Source of the DNA: Marsupella aquatica
Lineage: Eukaryota > Plantae > Marchantiophyta
Length of the DNA: 64,000 nt
Assembly: GCA_973895155.1 (NCBI GenBank)
Contig: OZ316894.1
Span: forward strand, 18,452,805-18,516,804
Direction: 5' to 3'
Position 1 is the stretch's first letter, and every line of letters starts with the position of its first letter. Positions 10,073-64,000 of the stretch are shown piece after piece. Under the pieces are notes generated by a model. It searched no databases, had not been told where the DNA came from, and worked only from the letters and a program-made list of their open reading frames with translations. The position numbers and the translations under genes were made by a program.

Positions 10073-13000
10073 TTGTTTCATATGAGTGACTCGGAGGATA
10101 CTGGAAGAATTGGCATCGATGGAGCTTCAGGATCGCGACGATTAGACGGTGAGTCTGAGGAGGAGCTGCTACCATTTGAGGAGGAACTAGTGACACCGGT
10201 ACGATCACCGGTGCGGCGTGCAGTGGAGGAAGCTGTGTTACTACCAGAGCTGTCCGTAGTTGGAAAGAAGAGGGAGATGGCTCGATTTGGAGGAGTGAAG
10301 TTTGAGGTGGAGAAGTACGATGGTCGTATTGATTATTTGTTGTGGGAGAAGCAAGTGAAGGGTGTTCTACGGGCCATGGGCTTAGCTCATCTGCTTTTAT
10401 CACCTGCTTATCAAACAATTTACACGACAAATACATATTTACTCCTACTAAAATTGTTTGTTATCGTATGACGGGAACGTGGAGGGACGCTATTAGGATT
10501 CTATTGCATGTAGGAGGAGTATGTTCATTTCCGCTCCCGGAAATGTAATTTTTGATCAAGTCTACCGACTAGTCGCTCTGCTTTTGATCAAGTCCCATGG
10601 ACTACACCACACACACACTCCTACTGGTCGTTGGTGGAGTGCTGTCACCACCCCTCCTACTCACATGGTTGACCAAACCGTGCAAGGATTCCTTAGACAC
10701 TTCTTGGGGAAAGAACATAATCTTGAACTAGAAAAGATAACGCCACACCAAAACTTGAGGAATCAAACCAAATCCATATCTTTTGGCAAAACGTCGTAAC
10801 ACATTGCAATGACAACCCGGCCTCCTGCCATCTGCCCAACTACTGCCTCACTGGGGCAAATGCTATACCTCTACCTCACTACTCTGGCTTGATTCCCTCT
10901 TCTGGCTATGAGCTAACTTCCCTAAATAAACACTAGACTGAGTCCCCCCCCCACTACTACGGGGCTCTTCCCCTAAATACTCAAAACAACACACCAAAGC
11001 ACCCCTCATGGGGTCACAAGGATGGCGGCTACCTTAGCGGCGCCGCTAAAACCTTCATGAAAGAAATCCCTAATCCTAAAGCATGCAGCACACACATGCT
11101 CTGAAAACCCTAATCTAACAATGGGACCGATGGTGCCTTCGACGGCGCTCCAACCTTGCTCCGTGAATTGCGAAAATGCAAGTGACCCCACAATTGCCAA
11201 AACTAGGTGCCACTCTGATTGCACCTCTGAACTCATCCCTAGGTAGCCCTGCTCCTCCTGATCATGAATCACAAAACCGCTCTCGAAACGGACGCCAAAC
11301 GACCAAGTTATGGCCGTTTCAGTATCACTTATTTACCAACTTCGTCGGGCCCTAACTTACTCATCCTGGCTCCGTTTGGGGAGCGCCGCCTCTTGTTGGA
11401 ATCAGCTCCGCGAGCTCCTTCCAACAAGCCCGTGAGTGCACCATTTTAAAAAGTTTCAAAATCCAGAGGTCGTACTACAGGTCCGTACGGCTACCCTAGT
11501 CCTCCTCCTCACTCACGGTGCCCTGACTTGAGCCCCGTGAGTTGGTCTCCTCATCAGTCCTCCTCCTCACTCACGGTGCCCTGACTTGAGCCCCGATCCT
11601 CCTATTCGCCACCACCGGTTCGTTGTAAAAGGAGGGGGTCCCTATAATTGTCGAAACTAAAATTTTCTCAGAATTCACTCTGAAAACATATCTGAGGAGC
11701 CCTCCTCTTCCTGATCACGGCTCCATAAATGGTGCACAAAACGGAAGTCAAACGGCCAAGATATGATCGTTTAAGTTTTTACGGAGCACCGTCTCCCTTT
11801 GTTTCATCCGTACAACACGTTTCCCCCGGCTTTGCAAAACATGTATCACGGTTTCCCCGTATGTGCTACTACCTCCTCCTTCCCTTGCTAAGCCGGGACC
11901 TCCTTCCGTACGGACGTCCGTACGGCCTCAAAACCCTCGTATTCTCAAAAAATATGATTTGTCATACTCCCCCGTCTTAGCTCCGTTTCGGCCGTGTGAC
12001 ACATCGTTGGATTCAGCTCGGCGAGCTCTTTCCAACAAGCCCGTAGACTCCTGATTTTGAGATGGTCAAAAATCTGATGTTTGTACAACCAGGGTCCGTA
12101 CACACGTTCAAAGCAAGCACAAGAGGGAAAGGGTTTAGGTATGGGTGGAAACCCCACAAGTGAGAATAGAGAAAGAAGGAAAGGAAGAAAGTGTGAGGGC
12201 CCCTTCTACGGATGTGTTCTTCTACAAAGTGCCCCTCTACGGAGTGGGGAAGGGAAAGAGAACAAAAACCATGTGAGGACCACACAAAAGGTGAAGGGGA
12301 ACACAAGTGTGAGAACCCCTTCCTTCTAAGGGCCCTCCCACCATCACTACTCCAAGATTGCCTAGTTTGTCATTTTACGGGCGTTGAGGTCCCTCGAGAT
12401 GTCACTGTTTGATATAGACCTAAAATCAACTCAAGAACCTCAGTTTCGCATGGGGCTCATTGAGGGCTTCAAAATGAATCCAAACATGACAATGTTTGTA
12501 ATAGTACTAGCGCAGCAACGTCTGTTTTAAGTTTCAACATTTTTTATATTTTGGTCATTCTTCCCGTTTTGCGCCTTATGTGGAGCCTCCGACCAGCCCC
12601 CACCCCTCCAAGATGCCCACACCTTGGCTCCAAGTCCTTGGGCTGCCTTGTGGCCTCCTTGTACCTCCTCAATGGTTCCCTTGTCATACATCACCGCCCG
12701 ACACCCCTCTCAACTCCTGCCTCCGGTTGTCGCATCCATTTATTAGGATTAACAAAAATAAAAAATTTGAAAATCCAAACATTTTTATTACACCTACTTG
12801 TGTTTCTACTTATATACGCAATTATAAGTCATCACTAAGTTACTACCGGGTTTGGGGCCCTGTCACAGCTTTCATCGCGAGAGTGGAGATAGGAGCAGGT
12901 GATTGCTGTCAACGCAGTGATGTTATATCTCAAGCGGCACATCATCAAGCAGCTGGATGATTATGCGGATTGCGCGTCACTATTCAAGGCTCTTAGAGAG

Positions 13001-16000
13001 AAGTACTATCGGGAAGATGCATCAGACCGGTTGTACAAGAAGTCTCTCTTGATGAGTCTCAGGCCCAAGGAAGGGAGCAAGATGCAGGATCACTTGGATG
13101 AGTTTGATAGTCTAGCGGTGGATCTATCAAACCTGGGTAAAGGAGTTGAAGATGAGGATAAGGCCTTGCTTTTGCCAAGCTCCTTACCGCCGTCATATCA
13201 GGGCTTGAAACAAGTGCTCTTGTATAGAGATCTGAAGTCCATTTCATATAATGAGGTGGTGAGCTCTTTACTGTCTGATGATGCTCAGAAGAAGCTGGGT
13301 CAATCACAGACAACATCTTCTTCTGGCACTGCACTGAACATGAACCGGGGAAGACAAACGCGGCGCACGAATGGACAGAACTGGATTAGATCTACATCAC
13401 GGGGGAGATCTAAATCCAGAGGGAAATCGCAAGAGAGGAAGCCTCTTGCATGTTGGAATTGTGGCAAGCCAGGCCACATGAAGAGGGATTGTCGAGTAAA
13501 GGTCCCTACTGCATCTGCTAACGCGGCATCAAGCTCGCATGAGGTAGATTTACTCGATGATGATGACATATTGTGATGCCGAGGTTATGCTCTCAACGTA
13601 GAGTCAAATCCAGGTAGTGATGACTGAATTTTAAATAGTGCATGTACTTTTCACATTTGCTCTAGGAAAGATTTTTTCAATTCTTACACGGTTTCCAACG
13701 GGTCAGTGTTAATGGGAAATGGAATCCCATGTCAAGTTGTTGGACTTGGATCTGTAAGATTTCAGATGTTTGATGATGCTGTAAGAACGTTAAAGAATGT
13801 GAGACATATTCCCAACATGATGAAAAATCTCATTTCACTTGGAGTTTTAGAGGCAAATGGCCATCAGTGGAGTTCTGCTAATGGTGTCCTTCAGGTTTCA
13901 ACTGGTACTAAAGTTGTATTAAAAGGAAAGAGACATAACAATCTATACGTTTTGGAGGGTAGTGTAGTCTGTGATGAAGCCAATGTAACCATATCTCATG
14001 AGGAGACGACCCGGCTGTGGCACTTCTGTTTGGGCCACATGAGTGAAAAAGGTTTGGTTATTTTTCAGAAGAAATGATTACTTTCTAATTTGCAATCTTG
14101 TAAGTTGGAATTTTGTGAGCACTGTGTGTTTGGGAAGCAGCACAGGAAACCCTTCGGAGTTGGAGCTCACACCAACAAGGAGGTACTTGAGTATGTACAT
14201 AGTGATGTGTGGGGTTCAGCCCCTACTCCCTCACATTCTGGACGATTATACTATGTCACGTTCATAGACGATTACTCAAGGTATGTGTGGATATACTTTT
14301 CACACAATAAGTCTGATATTTTTGCCACTTTTAAGGAGTGGAAAGCCCAAGCAGAGAATCAGACTGGTAATAAGATGAGATATCTTTGATCGGATAACGG
14401 TGGTGAATACAATTCCGTGAAATTTGGAACGTATTGTAAGGAGTAGGGGATTACTTGCCATCTCACAACAAGTTATACTCCTCAGCAGTGTTTTTGAGAG
14501 ACTCAACCGAACACTATTGGACCGCTCGAGGAGTATGTTGAGTCAATCATGCTTACCACATGAATTTTGGGTTGAAGCTGTCAACACTGCAGCTTATTTG
14601 GTAAATTTTTCTCCATCCAGTTCTATTGGATTCAAGACGCCATTTGAAATGAGGTATGGGCGTCCAGCAGATTACTCATATCTGAGGATTTTTGGATGTG
14701 ATGCTTATGTGCTTACACCTTCCCAGCTTTGATCCAAGTTGAAGTCCAAGTCAAAGAAGTGCATTTTTCTTGGCTATCAGAAAGGTGTGAAGGGTTATAG
14801 GTTATGAAATCCAGTCACCTGTAAGCTAATTGTCAATAGAGATGTGTCATTTAATGAATCCAGATCATCAAAGGAAGGGGAGAATTCTCAGGACTCCCAT
14901 ACTAACAAGGGGAAATCTCTTATCCCGGATCGGGTTGAGGGGGAGATTAGTCATGATGCAGTTCATGACAGGAGAGATGGAGAAGTTCCGGGCTTGGAGC
15001 TGGTTCCTGTGATGGAACAAGAGGAGCAGATTGTTGCTGGGGTACCTCAAATTCAACCAATAGCAGCAGCAGATCAGCCTGAGTCATCTACTAGAAGAAC
15101 TTCCAGTCGTTCTACTAGAGCTCCTACCAGGTATGGTCAATGGGCAGACTCATCTAAGCTAGATGATATTGACATTGCACCTAATGATGATGACATGACT
15201 TTGATCTTGGAAGAAGGAGAGCCTTCTTCGTACAATGAGGCTTGTACTTCAGAGCAGAAGCATGAGTGGAATGCAACAATGCAGAGGGAATTGCAATCTT
15301 TAAGTGACAACAAGACATGAGAGCTGATGGAGCTTCCAAGAGGTCAGCAAGTGGTGGACAGCAAGTGAATTTATAAGTTGAAGGACAATCCTTCAGAGGG
15401 TGGAGAAAAAATCTACAAGGCAAGGCTTGTTGCCAAGGGGTTCACTCAGGAGAAAGGAGTGGATTACAATGAGATCTTTTCACCGGTGGCTAAGTATTCT
15501 ACAATTCGGATCTTGTGTCAATTTGTTGTATTTTTTGGTGTGATGATGAATCAGATGGATGTTGTTACTACTTTTCTCTATGGCAACTTGGAAGAGATGA
15601 TCTTCATGAGACAGCCACTAGGCTTTATAAAGAAGGGCCAGAGAACTTAGTTTGCAGATTGCTCAAGTCCTTGTATGGATTGAAGCAATCTCCCAAACAG
15701 TGGAACAAGTGGTTTGATGATTTCATGCTTGCTCAAGGTTTTACAAAGATGGTGTATGATCCTTGTGTGTATACGAAATCAGTCAAGAATGATGTGTTTG
15801 GTTTCATCATTCTGATTATTTATGTGGATGACATGTTGATTGTGGCTAAAGATCAATTTGAGGTTGACAGTCTCAAGATGAAATTGAGTGCTGAACTTAG
15901 GATGAAAGATCTTGATAAGGCTAAGAGGATCTTAGGGATGGAGATTTTTAGGAACTCTGAGACTGGACAGTTTTGCTTGAGTCAAGGCCAGTATGCGAGG

Positions 16001-16235
16001 AAAGTACTTGCACGATTCAACATGAAGAACTGTAAGCCAATGAATATTCCTTTAGCTTCACATTTCAAATTATCATCGGTTTTCTCTCCTACGGATGATG
16101 TGAAGAAAGGTCTGATGACTAAGATTCCTTATGAGAAGACAATAGACAGTGTGATGTATTTGATAATTTATACTAGGCCTGACTTGGCCCTAACAATGGG
16201 CAAGGTTAACAGATTCATGTCAAATCCAGGGAAGG
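10073..16235 (+). mobile_element. Decayed Ty1/copia LTR retrotransposon (gag-PR-INT-RT), 3'-truncated before RNase H, gag interrupted by a solo LTR
   Basis: Gag KFEVEKYDGRIDYLLWEKQVKGVL (~10290); zinc knuckle CWNCGKPGHMKRDC (~13450); degenerate protease *ILNSACTFH (~13625); LWH..LGH and CEHCVFGKQHR; integrase HSDVWG, FIDDYSR, DNGGEY; RT YKARLVAKGFTQ, KSLYGLKQSP, YVDD (15821). Domain order is copia. Many stops and frameshifts. Homology ends at MSNPGK (~16235). Confidence 0.95.
10398..12867. mobile_element. Solo LTR (~2470 bp) inserted in the copia gag, with 5-bp TSD GCTTT
   Basis: GCTTT at 10393-10397 and 12868-12872 flanks a non-coding block with termini TATCAC...TGTCACA (TG..CA with one decayed base). 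Removing the block and one TSD restores the gag frame: GLAHLL|SSREWR*EQVIAVNAVMLYL. Internal ~39-bp duplication at ~11499/11557. Confidence 0.85.
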
Positions 16236-16537
16236 TACAACCATTCTCGAGAATCCCGCAACACCATCGACGTTTCTTATGTCTCTTATATCATAGATAT
16301 GAAGTACCAGTTCAATTCAAGGTCATCCAAAAGCACTATCGGGCTTTCATGTTCGATCACATTGAGATGTCGCCTTCCAGATTGCGTTGTGATGACCTTT
16401 GTAATCCTCGAATCCGGGACTTAGCTGTTGCCATTCTGATCTCAAACCATACTAAACTATTCCAGACAAGAGCCTTGTCATCCTCAACACAGGGTAACCA
16501 CTGCCTCATTCTGATCTCAAACCACCACTGAAGTGTT

Positions 16538-48940: not shown

Positions 48941-49506
48941 AGAGAGGTCATTTAGTCAAGAGAGACTATCAATTTTGATTGCACATTATGTACCTTGAAA
49001 CCCGGGCATGACACGGTGTAACTATATCTTATATACAAAAATGAAATATCCAGGGCAAAAGTACAAAAAATGGAGAACATCTCCATGCATAGTGCCAGCT
49101 ATGCTAAAGGCTGGGCATATCAAATGTACATAATGCCCTCCAACTATCCACCTTGCTAGCCTAGTACTAGATCTATATATGTCTACCTAGTCCACTATCC
49201 ATACAAGCTATGTCGCGTCTTCCTCTTCTTCACACGGGAATGACTAGGCTGCTCTGCTCTATGAGTCTCTACTGCTGACACACTAGGTAGCACATTGTGA
49301 TGCCTAGCCAGGAATCACTAGGCCAATTAAGTGGGAAAACGGAGGTGTACCCTATAAACACATTAGTATAGTAACAAAAACAAGGAAATAAACAATTAAG
49401 GGTGACTATGGAACCCGGGCCGAGGCCGGAGGTAAGGACGTCGGGAGAGAGAACACAATTAGGGTTAGGGCGCGCTAAGCGTCGGTAGCTAGGGGTAACC
49501 AATGGG

Positions 49507-51103
49507 ATGAAAGACCAGAGGAGGAGAGGGGTAAGGACCGCTCGCGAGGAATGGTGGCTCAATTGCAAGCACGAACTGGGCAGACGACTATGGAAGGCCA
49601 ACTACTGTCAGCTGCTTAGGCAAGCACTCTGGGCGGGAGCAGATACCAACCATCGAGTCAAGGAGGGTATGAGCAACGTCAATCAAGCGACACATTTTTG
49701 GGGATGCCTGTTTGAACAGGCAACTGAGTACATTAGGACTTACGAGGACGAAGAATCAGAGAGAGCAGCTCGAGAACGGCAGGAGCTCGCTCGACTATGG
49801 GAGCTGCAAAAGTCTGCCTTCTTAGGAGGAGAACTCATCAAGGCCGAGTTCTTGTGGACTCCTACTACCAATCAGCTCGATGACCTTCTGTTTTGCGAAG
49901 ACAGAATCGTCGGCATTTGGGAAGCCATCAACCGCTGCAACGACGCGCACTGGGAGTTGAAGGGTAGCACGGAGGGGTGGACAAAGGCAACTGTGCTAGG
50001 AGAAACATCCACGGCAGCCGAGATGAAGAGGAAAGGAAACAATAATGAAGAGGCCACCCCGACAAAAAGAACGAGGTCGGCGGCACCAAGGAAGCCAGCA
50101 GAGCAGCTGAACAGGAGGCAGGGAGAAGCCGAAGAGGAGGAGGTTGATCCCATCAATGCCATTCCAACAAAGGATGACACCTGGAAAGGCTGGGCGGTGA
50201 CCCTACCAGAGGAAGTGCAATTACATTTTGCACGGGAGGAGGATGCATGCTTTACGGCCATGCAGACCAAGAAGTACTAGGGCTTCATGGCCGGATCCGG
50301 CTTGGAAGCCTTTGTAAGATTACCATGGCTGAAGCCGGAGGTGCCGGACTCAGACTTATTAGAATTCGTGGGATCATGGGAACCCGAGACCAATTCCACG
50401 AGGGTGTATGGGAAGGATTTCTATCTCACTCCCCGGGTGATTGCCGAGGTGTTTGGCTTGCCGATGGGTAATAAGACCAAGGTTGATACCAGGAAGACCT
50501 TACTTGACAAGGAGTTCTGGTCGTTCCTAGGACCATCAACGAAGAATGGCTTCTTCTGGAACACCTGCACCAACCCGCACATCGGAGAGATGATCGATTT
50601 CTTGCGGGTGACCATGCACTGTAACTTGCCGAGGGCAGAGATCGGCAAGGCTCAGGTCTACCTGGCAGAAAGGCCAGACCCAAGCCGGGATTACAACGAG
50701 TACCTCCTCAACCAACTGAAGAAGATCTTGAAGGAGGAACAGCAGGTGATCGGCGTGGGAAGCATGTCCCGGCTTGGCTATCACATGCCGCTGTTGTGCC
50801 GGTATGCCAGAAGTCAAATCTTTGCCCCAGTACTTCCCCTATCGGCAAGGGCACCGGAGGAGGTTTCGGAGCAGAGGCCGGCAACAGAAGAGCCCAACCA
50901 GCCTGCTAGTCCTACGATCGAGCAGGTGTTTCGGCCAAGGAAAGAAGACTTGCCGATGCAGCAATCAGGCATGTAGAATCTGCTGAAATTGCTAGAGAAG
51001 GAGAGAACGGCACCGGCAACGGCACCGGTACAGGACACTGCCCAGAGGCCGGCCTAAGCCGACTCAGGAGGGAAAACCCCTTTACCGGAGCCAAGGAGAG
51101 AAG
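49507..51103 (+). pseudogene. Retroelement accessory ORF (plant mobile domain / Athila-ORF1-like), interrupted by stops
   Basis: ORFs 49507-50280 and 50287-50976 share a frame across one TAG. The motif GLEAFVRLPW...LLEFVGSW...RVYGKDFYLTPRVIAEVFGLP resembles plant transposon accessory proteins. Confidence 0.55.
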
Positions 51104-52756: not shown

Positions 52757-55641
52757 GGGATAGATTGCCCTTAGGGTTAGCACATAGATTAGATTAGGGT
52801 TGGTCACCACGGATTCTTTTGGTGCTGCTGGATTACCCGATGGACGACGGACCGGTTTCACTCGGAGTGGGGCACAGTTTCGGCCAGCGGTATTGGTAGC
52901 AGTCAGCAGTGCAGCTTCAGACAGTGATTCCGACGAGGACTCAGTGATCAGTTCTCCTCGTCATCAGGTGGTTGCACCTTTGTTGTGGGATATGGACGAG
53001 ATGTACGGGGCTACAAAGGGCCCACGACGATACTCTGGTGCAGTTGGCACAATTGATCTGGATGACTTCATCCAGGAGTTTGATACGTGGTGCGATATGC
53101 AGACATTGCGTAACGCCACGTTGTTTACCCCTTTCATGGCATGGAAGGGATTATTTTAGCATTTGGAGGGGCCACCCATGGATGACTACCATGAGTTTTG
53201 GAAGGCTCATTTGGTTGAGATTGAGGCATGGAGGCAGCATTGGTCACCTAATTACGTGTCCATCACCTATGGCACTAGTGCGGCTGCCCAACCCATTGCC
53301 ACAGCTACTGCCTCTTCTAGCAACACTAGCCAGAGTGGCACACCATCCACTAGCAGCACTCCAGCAGCATCCACCGCTACTCCTGCCGGTGTGATTGTGA
53401 CAGGAACTGGAGTTGCGCCAGCATTTAACCCTCTGTGGAATTCTTTGAGGTACTGAAGCAAAACTATCAGAGTGTAAGAACTGATAAGTTGAAGGGTCTC
53501 CAGGAGTTCCAGTGCAAGACTGGAGAGAGTCTACGTGAGGCATACACTCGTATGCGCAGATTGATCACTGTCACCAAGGGAGTGACAGAGGCTCAAGCAG
53601 TCCAATTTTGGTATGCAATTTTGGACAGAGAATTGCGACGCAGAGTGAGAGATGTCACTCTGCTTAGGGATGCAGATCCCACATTAGCAGTTGTTTTCAC
53701 CCTTTTTGAGCGCATTGAGCTCAATATGGTGAATGAGAAGGTGGTGACTTCTGGATTTGCCAAGGAAGCACCAAAGGCTGCATCTACATCCACACCACAG
53801 CCTACTACACGGAAGAGCCAGAGGGAGAAGCCTACTGCACGAGAGTCTACCAGCCAGAGACCTGTGCCCTCTTATGCTGGACAGCTGCCAGGATATTGGA
53901 CCTATGGTGGGGATCATGCACAGAGATATTTCCCAGATCATAGAGGATCAGGGGGAGCATCAGCACCTGATCAGCGATAGTGTGATCATTGTGGGGCTCC
54001 TGGACACACCAAGGATAGGTGTTTCTCACTCCACCCTGAGTTACGGAGGGGAGGATCCCGTACACATGATCAGGGAAGAGGAGGAGGAGGTAGAGGTGGT
54101 GGACGTGGTCGTGGCATGCCACATGCAAGGAGACAGGGAGGTGACGTTGCCCCTGCTTAACCATAGATCCAAAGGATGCTAAGATTGCTCAATTGGAGCA
54201 ACAGCTAGCTGCCATGGCTAGTTCCCAGATGAGACCTACTTTTGGTGATGGGGCATCTACATCCTATGGACCTTCCACATCCCATGGTCCTTCCACATCT
54301 TATGGAGTTGATGGAGATCTTGCCACAATGGGATTCATGTGTGGCACTGCACATATTGATGCATCAGCAGCTTTGACACGTGGGGCAGCCAAAGCTCTTG
54401 AGCCCCGAGGAGCAGTAGTGGAGCTAGATCCACAAAGGGGGGATGCACGTCGGCAGACAAAGCTTCCTCAGTCTTTTACATTGTCAGAGACAGTTCAGAC
54501 TGCCTCTATGAACCCGGTTCGGACAAACCCTAGCGTGGGTAAGTTGGCAGAATCCGGTAGTGATATAGTAGGGATGACAAGTACCCTGCTGGGGGTGGCT
54601 ACTACCATAGTACGCACCCCATTATTTTCAGCGACAGACATGTTGAACTTGGGAGTTGGTCCTGCAGAAGTATTCAGATTGGCAGCTACACTCTGTGAGG
54701 ACACTCCAGTTGTTGCTTCCCATGTAGAAGCAACTTGCAGTGTTGAAGCAGTGAAGACCATACCACCTACTACTACTAGTGAGACATGGCATGCAGCAGC
54801 AGCGAGGTTGGTGGATTTACCAGCACGCCCTGCATTTGAGAGGACTAGGTTTAAACCTAGTGTTGTGTCATTGGATAATCGGAGTGGTATCTTCCGATTA
54901 GTTGGGCCTTCTGGAGTAGTATACCAGCCAGAGAGAGTGTTACTGGATACTGGTGCTCAGCCCTTGATGTTGGGGAAGTCTGCCATACGTGGATTGGGAT
55001 TGCGTCTAGAGGATTTGGAGGATTGTCCCTTTCCCATTCAGACTTCATTGGGGGGACCTACACCTACACAGCATATCACCAGGAGACCACTTGATTTGAG
55101 GATTCAGGAAGGTCATACCACAGATAGCTCACAGATATAGGTGCGAGCTATTCTGACTAAGGCAGAGTCATATGATGTGTTGGTGGGATGTACAGTGCTC
55201 TACCCCATGGGATTTATTCTTGATTTTTGGGAGGAATCAGTGTCATATAGACCTGATTGGCAATCAGGAGATGCTCGATTGAGCAAATTGCTAGTGAGAT
55301 TTAGTGGACCTGTGGGAGGCCCTAAATCCACACCATTGTCTTTGGCAGCATTCAGTGGTGTAATTGCTGGACCTGATGATTTGATTGAGGGTAATGCGCA
55401 TGCAGCCGATGTTCCACCATTGGAGGAGTCTCATGAGGAGCACATCATTTGAGGATTACCTGTTGGCAGTGTTGTGCCACCAGTGTGGGGCACTGCACAA
55501 GCCTTGCCACAGGCAACAGCATGATTGGTACATGATGCATGGCGTCATGCTTTTACACCACAGTCAGGAGTAGAGCAGTCTCTTGCAGATGGACCTGTGA
55601 CTCTTTCACCATTGGATACCACTCTTATTGCTTGGCAATAT

Positions 55642-56600
55642 CCACCGGAGGGTATTTGTTTGTTGGATCTTTTTGGTGGGATTAGCATTGGATTGGCTAC
55701 TGTTCTTCAGGCAGGAATTCCTGTGCGTCATTATTTGTATGTGGAGACAAATGAGACAGCACGGAGGGTCTCATTGCGACATGTGGCTATATTGGTGGAT
55801 AGATATCCACAGTTGCTGCTAGTGGATGCTGTTTGTGGTTATCAACATGCACTACCTGCTGATATTTCATTGCTGGGGGCGGATCATCTGCATCGTGTTG
55901 GCCCCATTGATTTGGTGATTGTTGGTTGGCCATGTCAGGGCTAATCTAGAGCTGGCATTGGGCATGGACTTCATGATCCACGCTCTGCATTGTTTTGGGA
56001 GATGTTACGGGTGCTGCGTCATCTCCAGCTACATCAGACACAGTCTCCAGCATATATTTTGGAGAATGTGCCATTGTTAGGTGATGATCGTAGTTGGATT
56101 GTTGCCAGTGTTCACCAGGTGAGGTCTTGGATTGGACCTGTTGTGTTATTGGATGTTGCACGTGTGGGTTCTCGTGCACATCGTCCACGCTTGTGGTGGA
56201 CTAATTTGATCCCATGTGAGGTGCTGAAGCGCGCATTTGACAGCATTCCACGCTCACCAGCCTTAGTGGTGGATGATATTTTGGATCGAGGGTGTCGAGC
56301 ACAGGGTGTGACCCAACCTGATAGACCTCTATTGGAAATGGTCAATGCAGTTGGGCGCCCACGTTGTGCATTACCCACTCTTGTAAGCCACTCTACTTCA
56401 TATGCATTCAGAGTAGGTGGCCCTGGACTTGTGTGGGACACAGCTCTCCAGCAGTTAGTGGAGCCTACTGCTGATGAGAGAGAGCGTGCTATGGGATTTT
56501 GGACTGGCACCACTGCAGTTGCCTCTGTGTCAGAGGGTTTGCGGCGCCAGGTTCTTGGTCAAGCAATGGACCTGAATTTTTTGACTTGGATTATCAACTT
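55642..56600 (+). pseudogene. DNA (cytosine-5) methyltransferase domain, DNMT3-like, embedded in gypsy Pol (one internal stop at 55942-55944)
   Basis: Motif I LLDLFGGISIG; II YVE; IV IDLVIVGWPCQG*SRAG..GL.DPRSALF; VI YILENV; VIII SRAHRPRLWWTNL; TRD LPTL; IX ERERAMGF; X RRQVLGQAMD. Same frame as upstream protease and downstream RT. Confidence 0.93.
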
Positions 56601-59600
56601 GGGAGTAGCTGAACAGTTGCGGATGCGCTCTGCTGGAATTACTGATTGTCCCTTGGTGAGCTTGCGGTCCACTGAGACAGTATTGACCACAGCTGGGGGC
56701 GAGCAGACAGTCCATGGACCTATGGCAGGATTGGCCAAGGCTGGACAGATTATTGAGCAGGAAGGGACTGCTCAATCTACTGCTAAATAGCAATCATCGG
56801 CTATCTCTTCTACCCTACAAAGAGATATTAGGGATTTGGTGGAGAGTGGGGAACCACAGCTTGGCCCTAAGTTAACAGGGGAGGAGAGACATCGCATGCA
56901 TCGATTCCTGAAGAGTTATTGGAATTGTTTTGCATTCAGCATGAAGGATTTGGGGACACTGAAGGGCCCTGGTATTCAGATTGAATTGGCTAGTGATGCG
57001 CCAATCTTTCGTAGACCATACCGTTATAGTGACATGGAGAGAGCTCTGATTCAAAGCAGAACTCAAGATTTGTTGGAGGTTGGATTGGTGGAGATTTCAT
57101 ATGGGGAGTATGCATCTGCCACAATGATGCCAGCCAAGAAGGATGTGCATGGCAATTACATAGATAGGCGCATGTGTGGTGATTACAGACCTATTAATCG
57201 CCAGACAAAATCTGATCGATATGCCATGCCCACACCTGAGGAGATCTTTGATGCTGTGGGGCATGCAAAGGTTTTCAGTTCATTGGATCTGAGGGCAGGG
57301 TACCATCAGCTTCCAATTAGGCATGCTGACAGGTCCAAGACAACATTCTGGGGGATTGATTCTTATGGCAAAGATCGTTTGTATCAGTGGTTATTCTTAC
57401 CATTTGGGTTGAAGAATGCACCAGCTGAGTTCCAGAGAGTCGTGGATCGAATCCTTGCAGGTTTGGATTTTGTCAGATGTTATGTTGATGATATTTTGGT
57501 CTATTCTTCTACTGTGGAAGAACATCAGCAGCACTTGCAGATTGTGTTGGAGAGATTGAGAGCACATGGGTTGAAGCTCCATCCTGGCAAGTGTAAGTTC
57601 TTCCAAGACCAGATTGAGTATTTGGGCCACACTATATACCCAGGGGGATTGGGTGTACAGCAGACTAAAGTGGAGGCCATTACACAGATTCCTTGTCCTA
57701 CTGATGTGAGTAGAGTTCGTGCATTCTTGGGATTGGCGAGCTACTACAGGAGGTATGTTAAAGGATTTAGCCAGCTTGCTAAACCTTTGACCATACTCAC
57801 TAAGTTGGATCAAGAATGGATTTGGGGTAATGACCAGGAGCATGCCTTTCAGGAGTTGAAGCAAAGGTTGGCATCATCCCCTATTTTGAGAAGACCCATT
57901 TCAGGCAGACCATTTCAGCTACATACTGATTGGAGTGGAGTAGGACTTGGAGCAGTGCTGACTCCGAAGGATGATGAGGGGAATGAGTTTGTTGTGGCTT
58001 ATGCCAGTAGATCAAACAATTCAGCAGAGGCTAAGTATAGCTCTTATGAGGGAGAGTGTTTGGCAGCAGTGTGGGCTGTTGCACACTTTTGTTGCTACTT
58101 GTTTGGTAACCCCTTCACCTTGATCACTGATCATCAGCCTCTTAAGTGGTTAATGGAGTCTGACAAGCTTACAGGGAAGCTTGCACGATGGGCATTGTTG
58201 TTACAGGAGTATGATTTCCAGGTGGTGCATAGGCCTGGAAAAGTGAACTTGGATGCAGATGGATTAAGCCGCAATCCATGTACCAGTCAGCAAGATGAGA
58301 CTGGAGCCAGATGGCATGACGAGTCAGATAAGGAGATGGTGCCAAGATGGCATGCATCTGCCTTTCTTTGTTGGGTGCCAGTATATAGTGGATCTGTGGA
58401 CTCTACCTCATTGGATGGAGTGGATGATGAGTCTTCAGATGTGGATGTTAGTGAGGTAACTACTGGACAGCAAGATATTCACGATGATGTGAGAGTGTTG
58501 GAATATCTGCGCAGTGGTTCTATTGTTGGCAGTGTTGATGTCAAGGAATGTGACAGGGTTCTACAGAGAGCCAAGAGGTTTCGATGGGAGGGAAACCATC
58601 TTTTGAGAGTACTGCATGATGGTAGGGTGTTGGTGGTACCAAAACCATCACAACGAGTACATTTGGTGCGACATGCACACGAGGAGTTGGGTCACTTTGG
58701 TGTGAAGCACACTTATAGCTTGCTGTAGACACAGTATTGGTGGTGTGGTATGGACTCATGTCCAGCAGTTGATAGCTAAGTGTGTGGTATGCGATAGAGT
58801 GAGAGCATCATTTAATGCTCCCACTCCCCAGTTGCACCCGTTACCGATTATGGGTTTGGGATATCGTTGGAGTTTGGATTTTGCTGGTCCATTACCTCTT
58901 ACCCAACGCCATAATCGGTATGTTTTGGTCATGGTGGAGCATTTCTCCAAGTGGATTGAGCTAGTGGCGTTGCCAAATAAAGCCAATGGAGGAGTAGCTG
59001 CTACATTTTTGGATCGCGTACTCAGTCATTTTGGAGCACCAGTTGAGGTGTTGACTGATCAGGGAACTAAGTTCCTTGGAGAGTTTGAGAGTTTGTGTGA
59101 ACAAGCTTTGATTGATAATCGTACTACCTCTCGTGATCATCCTGAGGCAGATGGATTAGCTGAGAGAGTTGTGCAAACTGTGAAGAGAGGATTGTGTAAG
59201 TATGGCTTGCAGGTTGGTCATCTGGGAGATTGGGATCTCCAGCTACCTTGGTTAGCTATGGGCTACCGTTTCAGTCGGCAAGCATCACTTGCATCCTTCT
59301 CACCTTACTTTTTGCTCTATGGTAGAGAGCCAGATTTTCCAGCAGCTATTCGTCGTGATGCTGCACCAGTTGTGAACTTGGATGATCCTGATGTTTGGGT
59401 CAAGGTGTGTTCAGAGAGAGCACGGGTATTTCAGAGAGTGATGCCCATGGCTTTGACAACCTTGCCATTGCCCAACATCGTGATACTTTGAGGTATGCCA
59501 CTATTCGTGGAGGAGGTTACCGTGCAAGCATTCGACCGATTTTATCCTGGTGATTATGTTTATTTGCAACAGACAGCACCCGCAACACTTGATGTGACCG

Positions 59601-59821
59601 CAGGCCGGACAATCTTACGTGTGCATGAAGTGTTGCCTTTTGGTGTCCTGATGTTGGAGGGACGCGATGGTATGGTTTGGAAGGATCATGTAACATGATG
59701 TCGGACCTATCGAGAAGGGTGACCACCCTTCTCGTTTTTCATGATCAATTTTTTTTCTAAGGCATGTAAAACCCGATACAAATTGTGCATTCCAGAAAAA
59801 TAGTCATCCATGATTAGGAGG

Positions 59822-62800
59822 AATGCAAAGATCGATACGGGTATCGACCTTTGCATTTGTAAATTCTTTGGTTATCAGAAATTTACAGAAATGGTAAAAC
59901 TGTGCATAACCGCGCAGTAGGCTCTAACTATGGTTAAGTTTAACTAGGGTTAAGCTAGAAATTAACCATAGCTACCTCCAAAAGTATAAATATGACTGCC
60001 CGCTCATGGAAAAAAGTTTCATTTTTCAAGTCCTCTTTCACAATCAAGCTCTCACCCAACCCAAAGAAAACCTCCTCTCCATACAGATGCGCATTCTGGT
60101 CTTAAGAATAAGCTTTCCACTTTCCAAAGCAAACTGTGATACTCGTATCGTAATCAGCTTTGTAGAAAGCAACTTGCGATACTTGTATCGTAAGTTGCAT
60201 TCAAACCTAAGTTTCAAACCCTCAACAATACAGGTATCGCTTGGTGCATTGAGCCAACTCAATTAGTCTCATGGTGCAGGAGTGAAAATACTTCAATCAT
60301 GGTTTAGATTCTGTCTCTTGAAGATTGTAAAGCCGTTTGCTGCTCATCTCGCAGTTCTTCATATTATGTTGGGGCCCTTATTTTCTCTTGGGTAGCTGTT
60401 GGTCGGATCCGAAAGCCAATAGCGATACTTGTATCACTCTTTGGATTGAGTAGTGTAGATTTAGGACGGACTGCGCTGCAAAGATCATTGGACTGGGTCA
60501 CTCGTGACCTCTAAGGTGGACCTGACAAAACCCCACCTAAACAAACACAAATACTCTGTTCCATTCGCTTACAAGCAAAAATGTGCCCAGCAAAAGTTGG
60601 GCTCGACAATCTTTTGAGTGCCCAAAGAGTGATGGCCTCGTGTCTATATCCTCTCCCATACAATGTTTCCCATTTTTTCTTGTCTTTGTGAGAGCTCGTG
60701 TGAGAGATTTTGGAAAGGAGCATTGTTTGGCTAGAGAGGAGACTGAGGAGGTGGTGTGGCCTGGCTGATTCAAAAAGAAATAGTTTTACCCTGTAGGCAG
60801 CACCAGAACAAGTTCTAGAGGCGGCGCAAATGAAGACAGTGCAAACCATGGTTTGTACTGTGAAAAGGATTTGGTCTGTTTCTTGAGTCATTTCCCTTAG
60901 TTGGTTTTGCACAAATAGTTTTTGAGGCATTCCGTGTGGCTTGTGAAAGACATATGAGATAGTCGTATTGCTTCGAGTAGGAGTCTTTGTGTTTTGTCAT
61001 CTAAAGAGGAATCGGCGGATGGATTGGAAAGTGTTGGCCCAATCCGAAAGCAAATTGTGGTGCTTGTATCTCTCTTGGGATTGAGTCATGTTGTTCTCAG
61101 AATTAAGCTGAATTCAGTAATCCCAGTTAAAACATCAGAAATTAACTAGAGACTCCATTAGAGCCTGCAATCTTGTATCTGTAGCCCGATCGTGGATTCA
61201 TGGATCCTCTTGGGGGTTTGTAAGGTGTTGGCTTGTTAAGAAAGCAAAGCTTGTTCTCTCGTTCTTCTCTCTCTGCTCAATGGCAACATTCCCAAAGAGC
61301 GGAGGAAGACTTGCAAGTATGAAGGACTTAGAATTCATCGTTGTCGATTTGGCCATTCCCACAATAACAATCATGACATAGTACTTGCTCAAATTGATGC
61401 AGCCAAAGGGCGACGAAGGAGAGGACAGTGAGTTGATCGTAGTCACCACCGGCAGAGAAGGAGTTGCAGCTTGTCATGTCTGTCAATCTATCTTTCCTTT
61501 TGTTCCAATTGTTTTGTAAGTTGCTCTTTTGCATCGCTGCGGGCATTGGCGATTCTTTTGCGATTTTGAGTTTTGAGAAGCAGATTAAGTGATCAAACTG
61601 ATAGTTTACATTGATTGCCAGTATCGTCGGCCTTTCTTCATTTTTTGAGCTTCTTGAGCTTCAGATTTGACTCACCGGCACTACATGTCATTGTGCAGAT
61701 GGACAACGATAGCCTTGACCCTTGCTGGATTAGAACCGCATGAGAATCAATAGCAGCTCCCAACAGACGCCCCTGCTCAAGGTTCCTGGACCCAGTAGAA
61801 AGCAACTTGGATGCCGTATTCAGAAGAAAGCAAAGCGCGATACTTGTATCGCTCGTGGGATTGATCAAGCAATGTAGATCTCAAATTTGATCTGCCAAAG
61901 GAAAACAATGGAAGGAAGTGCAAGGACAGGGTCTGCTGAGACCGAGAACCTCATGACAACTTTGTGTAATGTGATTTGGACGACAGAAGATATTTGTGAT
62001 GAACAAAAGTTTGTGAGGAGACCTTGGTACTTTCGGGATACTCGAATGATGTCCAAGGAAGCAGCTGACTGGGAGACACCCGTTCTTTGGGTTCAAGTGA
62101 AGAAAACATAGAAGATTACACTCTCCTTTGGTCCAGTAATTTGGGTTGCCGCATGTGACTTTAAGAAGGGTCATGGGAAGGAAAAATCTGTCGCTATTGG
62201 ATTGAGCTTCCTCACAATGTGTGGAAGCAAGGGTTTTGTGGCCCTTGTCGTGGACATGGATTTGTATGATCTCTCAACATTAGACAAATTTCCCAAAGAC
62301 CCTATTGTGAAGGAAGTCGCGAGTACAATTGAGATGGAGATCTTCAAGCCTGAGTGGGTTGCTAATGTTGTGGATGATTCGAGTCCTTTGATGTTGCCGT
62401 TTGTCCAAAAAGAGTATAAGAGACTCGTGGGTGAAGAGTTTAAACCCACACGAAGGATCAAAGTAAGGAAGCCAACCATTAGCGGGAGTGGCGCATCTTC
62501 AGTTGCAAAAGGAGTTGATTGTGCTAGTGGGAGCGGGGGACATGGGAAAGGGAATTCCCAAGTAGAAGCTACCATGAGAGTGATTCTAGGTGAAGCACCT
62601 CAATCTGTAGAGGCAAGCCCAAGCGCTACTGCAAGTGTTGGTCGTGGTCGAGGTCGTGGAAGGGGAGTTGTGGATGAATTGGTACCTGTCAAGGCAGAGG
62701 TTCCATCGCCATCAACTTCACTTGCAAAGAAGAAGAGGACTGGTTGGATTGGAGGCACAGGAGTAGCTCTAGCTGCAGATTCAAGTGGTGCAATAAGCAC

Positions 62801-62934
62801 TCCAGCTGTGTCAATGCATCAATCCAAAGAACGATTACCCCTTACCTCAGGTCCAACCTCAGCTGTCGTTAGCATTCCCCTGGTAAGTTTATTTGTCTAG
62901 AAAAAATGAATGTTGGGAGCGATACTTGTATCAC
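59822..62934. repeat. Dispersed palindromic motif (G)CGATAC-NN-GTATCG(C), at least 7 copies
   Basis: Copies at 59832-47, 60138-49, 60176-91, 60226-40, 60421-38, 61837-52 and 62919-34; degenerate copies at ~61060 and ~61170. Confidence 0.85.
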
Positions 62935-64000
62935 GCATTGCATTGAAATAATGAAAATGGTTTGCATTTTGAATTCTTCTTAAAATTCATTGCAAGCCAT
63001 GTTATTTTTCAGGGAGATGAGGAAGAAGAGACGTCGTTGGCTTCATTTGAGACAGATGCCATCAAGGCTGAACTTGCAAAGCTCATGCTTGAACGTAGAG
63101 TCCAGAGGACCAGTGTGCTTCTGCATGTCAATAATCTCATTTTTGAAGATGAGGGTGAGAATTCAACTTTAGTTAGACCTGTAGATCGGCTACATGTAGA
63201 GAACATCAAAATGTTGCTCATGAAAAACCCTTCCAACTTCATGGCTCCATTTGTTGTTGTAGTTGATCCAACAGATTGTCCCACAATTCATGAGTGGGAC
63301 ATTACTAAATCTAGGGTATGGAAGTATCGAGTGATTGGCGGTAATCATGGAGCTCGTGCAAAGGCTGAACTTTTCAAAATGTATGGAAAGCAAGTGTACG
63401 GTGAGATTGAGGCATGGGTTTACTCTGGTCTAACGAGACATGAGATCAGGATGTTGGCTTTCCAGCATAACTACGACCAGGAGTACCGTAAAACCATGAC
63501 ATCGATTGACAAAGTTCGTGCCTGTCACAATATTTTCATGGAAATGAATGTGGGGTCAACTAAAGAGGTGCGAGAAGCTTGTTGTAAGGAATGTATGCTT
63601 GATTACACTCCAGGTGTTCGTGACTCAATGGCCAAACATGACCCTACATTTCAGATTGCCTTTCGATCTGGGGAGATTTGGGAGCTCCAAGATAAAATTT
63701 TCTCTATGTGGCAAAAGTTTGAGATCCTTGGTCAAACAAAGCCAATCGTGGCCAAGTAGCTGTCAGCAACATCAAAAGGTAAATCAAAAGCTAAACCTAA
63801 ACCGCTGAGTGCAAGTGAAATCAAAATGAACAAGCTCTCTGGGCATTTCAATTTGAGGGTCTTCAGAGCTCTCCAGGGGCTTTCCAATCAGGAGCATGTG
63901 AAGCGACTCCTAAACAGAGTAATTGGAAAGAAAATCACTCTAGAACAAATGTTCAAAGAAGGTGAGACACTTAAGAAGTTGGCAAAGGTAAAGAAATTGT
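61908..64000 (+). pseudogene. Intron-containing gene for a ParB/Sulfiredoxin-fold protein, probably transposon-borne; two in-frame TAG stops; runs off the window
   Basis: One frame from ATG 61908 (TAG at 62109) to donor CTG|GTAAGT at 62883. Acceptor TTTCAG|GGA at 63012 (phase 0, in frame). Motifs LVRPVDRLHVENIK, YRVIGGNHGARA, AWVYSGL..EIRMLAFQHN. After TAG at 63757 the frame stays open to 64000 (FRALQGL...LLNRV). Confidence 0.7.

Follow-up and report, generated by a model that had tools for sequence, protein, structure and literature searches.

Bipartite palindromic sites clustered around a predicted ParB-HTH gene in a likely Sola1-type DNA transposon of Marsupella aquatica

By one account, VANDAL elements are the sole group of transposons for which self-binding and self-modification have been demonstrated (bioRxiv 10.1101/2025.02.11.637652). 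In these elements the accessory protein VANC is associated with family-specific short motifs, which are located within introns, between genes and in non-coding parts at the termini and which multiply by tandem duplication (PMC5735166). Self-binding and self-modification have also been proposed for algal transposons with ParB-like genes. The accessory protein of Sola1-1_Ec32 from the brown alga Ectocarpus, for which the authors made such a proposal, has 1104 aa and combines a ParB-like domain with an N4C/N6A DNA methyltransferase; the element generates a 4-bp target duplication (PMC12477816). Likewise, PAG2/PAG3 of Bostrychia's Plavaka elements, a ParB accessory gene with inverted repeats, have been proposed to bind the transposon that carries them and to modify it (bioRxiv 10.1101/2025.02.11.637652). 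Already in print, then, are the ParB-methylase fusion in Sola1 and the idea of self-modification (PMC12477816), as well as the idea of a ParB gene acting with inverted repeats (bioRxiv 10.1101/2025.02.11.637652). The passages on ParB self-marking in these algal papers define no site for a ParB-methylase fusion, and no paper on a land-plant version or its site was found in the literature collection that we searched.

Here we describe a 64,000-base stretch of DNA (the window) in which a ParB-like gene is accompanied by palindromic sites. The locus would represent a land-plant variant of a kind of system that has been proposed before, with a mode of action that we infer to be VANC-like. As judged from its description, Sola1-1_Ec32 resembles the present element in the fusion of the ParB-like domain to a methyltransferase, which in our case is seen in relatives of the window gene. 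Its accessory gene is encoded by the strand opposite to the transposase, the arrangement in the relatives studied here being convergent, and its host is a brown alga rather than a land plant; the main text of that report contains no palindrome or binding motif, whereas the site is defined here (PMC12477816). The termini are AACCG in Sola1-1_Ec32, AACAT at 59692 in the window and AACAC in sister families, so that AAC is common to all, but this likeness of three shared bases is weak (PMC12477816). PAG2/PAG3 of Plavaka have a PF01555 methylase in the same cassette, as do the relatives studied here. However, they consist of a ParB-2OG oxygenase and a separate methylase-SET gene in an EnSpm/Plavaka element, whereas we find a single ParB-HTH-methylase gene in a likely Sola1-type element, and their repeats are in tandem beside the gene, whereas ours are dispersed bipartite sites in the leader, the introns and the 3' gap (bioRxiv 10.1101/2025.02.11.637652).

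The likeness to VANDAL elements concerns the accessory protein, the position of the family-specific motifs and their tandem duplication. In contrast, VANC motifs are 8-9 nt long and non-palindromic as compared to the palindromic 38-bp sites described below, VANC is neither a ParB nor a methylase protein, and its function has been shown, while that of the present protein is deduced (PMC5735166). Bacterial ParB, Noc and KorB share with the window gene an N-domain plus HTH fold, predicted in our case, and a clustered 16-bp inverted core near the gene. They differ in that the present protein has no GERRxRA motif, no ParA seen nearby, a 38-bp bipartite site, introns, an extra N-terminal domain and, in relatives, a C-terminal methylase (PMC10786196). 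Lastly, DN4MT1 of Marchantia is, like the methylase considered here, a bacterial-type beta-class amino-methyltransferase of a non-seed plant, but it has a TSPPY motif, writes 4mC and is a host sperm gene, whereas the present D-x-P-Y enzyme belongs to a transposon; the passages describing DN4MT1 make no mention of ParB (bioRxiv 10.1101/2021.02.12.428880).

Palindromic sites in the window and in related loci

A window-wide scan for the pattern GCGATACNNGTATCGC with up to 2 mismatches returned 7 matches in the 64,000 bases, every one of them at 59832-62934, as compared to a mean of 0.04 and a maximum of 1 in 100 shuffles. This agrees with the first-pass annotation, which had noted an inverted repeat occurring at least seven times in 3.1 kb, except that an eighth, more decayed copy at 61046-61083 had been overlooked. 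The unit size of 14-16 bp given there has to be revised. Only one of the seven matches, at 61837, is a perfect 16-bp match, and half-site alignment revealed that the full unit is a 38-bp bipartite palindrome with an inner GCGATAC-NN-GTATCGC and an outer AAW, of which 8 copies are present at 59821-62945. Each arm thus contains two conserved blocks, an inner GCGATAC and an outer SAAWGC, arranged around a free 2-nt centre. The two A residues at positions -17/-16 are conserved in 15 and 16 of the 16 half-sites, respectively, and the C at -13 in 15 of them. The shared context GAAAGCAA...TGGATTGA that had been noted around several copies is indeed conserved, yet it corresponds to the second, outer block of both arms and belongs to the site itself. 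With a weight matrix derived from the 8 sites, these scored 25.6-47.2 and the best other position of the window 5.4, a gap that exists partly by construction; no 38-bp site was detected with this matrix outside the element, in the remaining 59.7 kb of the window. The cluster of eight sites is a real feature that is not due to chance.

The sites, to which no strand is assigned, are distributed as follows. Site 1 (59821-59858) is located upstream of a TATA-like box. Sites 2 (60125-60162) and 5 (60411-60448) were identified by both the pattern and the weight matrix, and site 3 (60165-60202) additionally by the inverted-repeat search. In site 4 (60214-60251) the left arm is decayed, while site 6 (61046-61083) has a decayed core in a context that duplicates that of site 5 (80% over 60 nt). 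Site 7 (61826-61863) contains the perfect 16-bp core, which ends at 61852, 55 bp before the ATG at 61908, and the core of site 8 (62908-62945), a perfect palindrome in sibling copies, starts at 62919 within the 130-nt GT-AG intron at 62883-63012. None of the copies falls in a coding exon. The placements of the ATG-proximal and the intronic copy are as previously annotated, and the same is true for the extension of two copies, sites 1 and 3, into long palindromes (59822-59857 with 17-nt arms and 94% identity, and 60165-60202 with 18-nt arms and 89% identity). Only 2 of the 8 sites folded into hairpins clearly better than shuffled sequences (z-scores of -7.0 and -6.1). Furthermore, pairing between the arms in the variable zone of the window sites was 0.58 versus 0.50 for permuted arms (p-value of 0.09), and the sites of the related locus L001 showed a slight excess of arm pairing (p-value of 0.014). 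The fixed blocks, a variable zone whose pairing barely exceeds that of permuted arms, and the unremarkable folding of 6 of the 8 sites favour a protein site in duplex DNA over a folded strand.

Five related loci (L001-L005), whose proteins are 51-57% identical to that of the window gene, were inspected for comparable sites. Four of the five have the same architecture with family-specific cores. In L001, L002 and L005 the cores read CGAGAC/CGATAC-NN-GTCTCG/GTATCG and the full site GAAT-N5-AGCGAKAC-NN-GTMTCGCT-N5-ATTC. The core of L003 is CCGAT-CYRRAC-ATCG, and its full site, GAATA-N6-CCGATCYRRACATCG, is half-asymmetric with one outer arm. All families have CGA-N8-TCG in common, with AA at -17/-16. 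Application of a family-neutral rule to the element part of the window plus the four loci (L004 being left out) identified 39 sites as compared to 0.07-0.13 in shuffles. All 39 were non-coding, in spite of a coding share of 46-77% in each locus; the rule fails to recover 2 of the 8 window sites and yields 3 chance matches in the other 59.7 kb. All 20 sites found in L003 with its own pattern are likewise non-coding, and L004, which spans 1.1 kb and is mostly coding, contains no sites. The p-value of 4e-18 for exon avoidance overstates the case, because tandemly duplicated sites are not independent and amino-acid constraint may partly explain the exclusion from exons. The HTH region of L003 was not clearly more divergent, and three types of site are too few to address co-evolution of protein and site.

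The view that the palindromes form a binding-site array for an element-encoded protein is thus supported inasmuch as the sites are part of the element and accompany the gene; what this view had missed is the methylase fusion and the likely Sola1-type host. The strictly non-coding placement of the sites also fits the proposed analogy with VANC (PMC5735166). Random distribution or an unrelated MITE, the two alternatives raised with the original observation, both fail, since 0.04 matches are expected by chance and the motif changes with the gene family.

The host transposon and its genes

Upstream of the sites, a Ty3 retroelement (RT, RNase H, integrase) breaks off at 59691, and element contigs start exactly at 59692 in the sequencing runs X1, X2, X3 and X4. 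In contigs of the sequencing runs, other Ty3 copies continue differently at this junction, and two further flanks were found to be joined to the same left end, in X1 and X3. The contig start at 59692 and the differing flanks identify the sequence that follows as the left part of an interspersed DNA transposon. Its left terminus (59692-59710, plus strand) begins with AACATG and lies in the integrase C-terminal region of the Ty3 element. Next to it is a subterminal hairpin with 11-bp arms (59711-59734, no strand assigned), which is common to sister families and has a motif different from that of the 38-bp sites. A likely promoter, as judged from its sequence, is located at 59960-59992 on the plus strand, where AATTAACCAT is followed by TATAAATA (59985-59992); the same pair is present at L001:2-35. 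In both the window and L001 the TATA-like box and the same upstream decamer are followed by the densest run of sites. The window covers only the left part of the element, the right end of which lies past 64000, and no transposase pieces were found in the window. In sibling contigs of three runs the in-frame stop at 62109 is missing and the core of site 8 is perfect, which implies that the family is young and that the window copy has decayed. A contig depth of 217 versus 35 in X1 suggests about 6 copies, although depth is no copy number.

Two further observations concern the left end. The subterminal hairpin stretch 59703-59738 has a contig depth 4-6 times that of the body of the element and is also joined to other termini (AACACAGTGAT), which indicates that several sister families share this end. 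In addition, an imperfect inverted repeat at 59925-59974 (16-nt arms, 88%) is positioned just before the TATA-like box, and its right arm holds the decamer in common with L001.

The ParB-like gene, once spliced, extends from 61908 to past 64000 and contains two in-frame stops, one per exon. Exon 1 (61908-62882, plus strand) encodes an N-terminal domain of about 180 aa and a low-complexity linker, and includes the stop at 62109. The phase 0 intron is found at the same position in L001, L003 and L005. Exon 2 (63013-64000, plus strand), which has a stop at 63757 and runs past the window, encodes a predicted ParB/Srx-fold N-domain, an HTH and a helical DNA-binding domain. In the N-terminal domain of exon 1 (61908-62450) the residues W24, W40, FGPV, W150 and LP..Q..Y are invariant in 4 of 4 sequences, and this domain may serve to read chromatin or to dimerise. 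Neither exon of the window protein matched a Pfam family. Close relatives of exon 2 number 22 and wider ones 148; viral contigs yielded neither a protein relative nor a motif match. A search for longer homologues yielded nothing among 2,804 candidates, and a profile comparison of A3 with A2 showed no kinship.

An AF2 model of exon 2, based on a 135-row alignment, had a pLDDT of 86.5. Nucleotide-bound Noc and ParB structures were its top matches in Foldseek (E 1e-6). Structural comparison gave a Z of 10.5 and an rmsd of 3.9 over 130 aligned residues for PadC, and a Z of 9.4 and an rmsd of 6.1 over 193 residues for KorB, the latter extending over both domains (model residues 33-326); the KorB DNA-binding domain alone gave a Z of 5.3. 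At the sequence level, no ParB domain was detected in the window protein by Pfam and PDB searches, and HTH_ParB matched 5 of the 135 relatives (best E 3e-4), the window protein not being among them. The window protein is therefore predicted, from the structural model, to be a DNA-binding protein with a ParB-fold N-domain and an HTH. Arg55 (75/84), GGNH, His152-Asn153 and, within the latter pair, Asn153 (117/121) are conserved in the relatives. GERRxRA is the CTP-pocket motif of ParB (PMC10786196). Its position reads GNHGARA here, in a register set by motif position and not by a residue-level structural map; the position of the second arginine, 113, is Arg in 2 of 113 relatives, and position 112 is His in 103 of 113. 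This difference in the motif argues against a true ParB/parS CTP clamp, and by its sequence the protein is not a ParABS member. The suggestion of a ParB/parS-like module can therefore be retained for the predicted N-domain and HTH, but not for the clamp. Neither the window part of the element nor the related loci, in both of which the element is incomplete, showed a ParA-like gene.

In L001, L002 and L003 (3/3) the next exon downstream encodes a PF01555 methylase (E 4e-8 to 2e-7), and PF01555 was present in 9 of 42 proteins scanned. The intron at which exon 2 ends in these three loci also ends it in close relatives, which suggests that the window copy likely had a methylase exon as well, past 64000. 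The order of the motifs in L001-L003, DVPY/DIPY followed by DLCCGTG, is that of the beta class, and both the SAM-binding motif I and QKP have been retained. A pattern search found motif IV in 11 of 37 long relatives, always with Asp first (11/11) and as DPPY in 3 of them, but not in the other 26. In the nearest relatives the motif is DVPY/DIPY, where the second position is not Pro, in contrast to the canonical [DNSH]PP[YFW]. Such a non-canonical motif and the 26 of 37 relatives in which none was found imply that many families may have an inactive methylase. By the rule that an Asp at the start of motif IV points to adenine rather than to the N4 of cytosine, the target would be adenine (PMC4738411), and the methylase of the relatives therefore likely writes 6mA.

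L002 and L003 further contain the C-terminus of a DUF7869-family protein (full-length relatives with E about 1e-49), the gene of which is convergent to the methylase. Its motifs DGMDQ, LDNxxRENKN and GHTHDQID resemble what we take to be a Sola-type DDE/D core. The predicted fold was poor (pLDDT 35 with 13 sequences) and comparison with the PDB gave no useful match; no relative was detected in prokaryote genomes and our literature searches returned nothing on DUF7869. Taken together, the AAC terminus, the convergent DUF7869 gene and the layout of Ectocarpus Sola1-1_Ec32 make a Sola1-type DNA transposon the likely, though not proven, host element. The DUF7869 proteins P0196-P0208 (relatives of L002:2994-3539) end in a beta-rich domain with PFWLAKV...KI.W, the best-predicted part of the poor model, which is presumably Tudor/BAH-like.

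Other types of element were considered and rejected. For a Starship-like element, the sole pointer is a feature match of 0.96 to DUF3723, which we assume to be a Starship accessory gene. A Helitron is contradicted by the linked gene, DUF7869, and by an element end that does not fit CTRR, the Helitron end. In a Replitron (HUH) one would expect a Rep HUQ and GYxxK transposase in an element of 2-4 kb (PMC10288648), whereas DUF7869 is the gene linked here and relatives contain two genes over at least 5 kb.

Proposed role of the sites

We consider it probable (roughly 0.6) that the palindromes are cognate docking sites of the element's own predicted ParB-HTH-methylase, which would mark the element to keep it expressed. 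A two-fold symmetric ParB-HTH dimer would read the inner CGAK/GATAC block by its HTH, and its contact with the outer AAW block would fall roughly one turn of the helix farther from the centre. Once docked at the promoter, 5' leader, introns and 3' gap, the dimer would carry the methylase domain to the element, where the mark, probably N6-methyladenine, or occupancy of the CG-containing core may counter silencing by host CG methylation. This effect would be limited to the element's own family, as with VANC for VANDAL, with site and protein drifting together between families, and the decayed window copy would be served in trans. CTP-driven sliding in the bacterial form is unlikely to be involved. 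The more specific idea that transposons of non-seed land plants write their own methyladenine 'self' tag at a family-private 38-bp site by means of a CTP-independent ParB domain, and thereby block CG silencing, is tentative, and we regard it as possible but somewhat unlikely. Other transposon-borne adenine methylases produced no 6mA in E. coli in the experiments described (bioRxiv 2026.05.21.726589), which, like the non-canonical motif IV, counts against the marking step.

The main rival, for which the odds are low but appreciable, is that the same protein, its methylase being dead or dispensable, serves as a repressor or scaffold, so that the sites are an operator array limiting the element's own transcription in a KorB-like manner. 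This would suit the clustering of sites directly downstream of the TATA-like box and ahead of the ATG, seen in the window, L001 and L003, the presence of KorB, a repressor, among the best fold matches, and the non-canonical motif IV. However, introns and the 3' gap are also filled with sites, which is beyond the need of an operator, and motif I and QKP are retained in L001-L003. It is less probable still that the transposase binds the sites to help pair the ends, as with CACTA subterminal repeats. The sites are within a transposon, with 130 bp between its left end and the first of them, but they extend over 3.2 kb or more, including accessory-gene introns in the middle of the element. Moreover, the end has its own, different hairpin shared among sister families, and the natural reader of a two-fold site is the ParB-HTH protein.

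A genuine parS/ParB system, in which a CTP-dependent sliding clamp tethers or partitions the excised element, appears very improbable. The nucleotide-bound structures heading the Foldseek list, the conserved Arg55 and Asn153 and a core of 16 bp, as in parS, would be in keeping with it, but GNHGARA with its rare Arg at 113 and frequent His at 112, the absence of a visible ParA-like gene and a methylase in place of the C-terminal ParB dimer domain are not. Least probable of all are nested remains of small MITEs, or hairpins that work in single-stranded form as DNA or RNA, with no relation to the gene: two copies are strong hairpins and matches to site 1 in run X5 place the motif in other abundant repeats as well, but most sites fold unremarkably, shared flanks or duplications are lacking, the L003 sites are half-asymmetric, and the motif is absent from the rest of the window and follows the gene family.

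If the docking-site reading is correct, it would provide a second, independent anti-silencing design and possibly a tool for targeted epigenome marking. 6mA is thought to have been lost from major multicellular lineages (bioRxiv 2026.05.21.726589); a methyladenine self-tag, if true, would give multicellular plants a real 6mA source and supply a reader-writer pair that can be programmed, and each family would have its own 'self' mark, similar to restriction-modification. As the present site has been delimited to the base, varies with the family and avoids exons, binding and methylation become directly testable.

Neighbouring elements and further observations

In run X5, which derives from a different, related organism, at least 14 short contigs match site 1 alone (59818-59857) between A+T-rich flanks. 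Judging from these contigs, the motif may be part of an abundant related element in that organism. By features, the nearest Atlas clusters to 63013-63756 are mollusc and sponge proteins and fungal DUF3723 (0.96). This is a hint that DUF3723 is a ParB-like relative; no literature linking DUF3723 with ParB was found.

Just upstream of the Ty3 element, two in-frame ORFs at 49489-50976 (495 aa with one stop) matched no Pfam family and probably belong to a further mobile element. At 12893-16531 the ORF list revealed a decayed Copia-like retroelement (gag with a zinc knuckle, RT pieces). The genes nearby, the introns and the protein matches would suit a non-seed land plant. The Ty3 retroelement itself, at 52788-59691, contains a C5 cytosine methyltransferase domain (55525-56787) between the protease and the RT (PF00145, E 4e-10, read through one stop). 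Retrotransposons bearing a DNMT are already known (bioRxiv 2026.05.21.726589). In the window, a methylase-carrying retrotransposon thus hosts a DNA transposon whose relatives carry a methylase.
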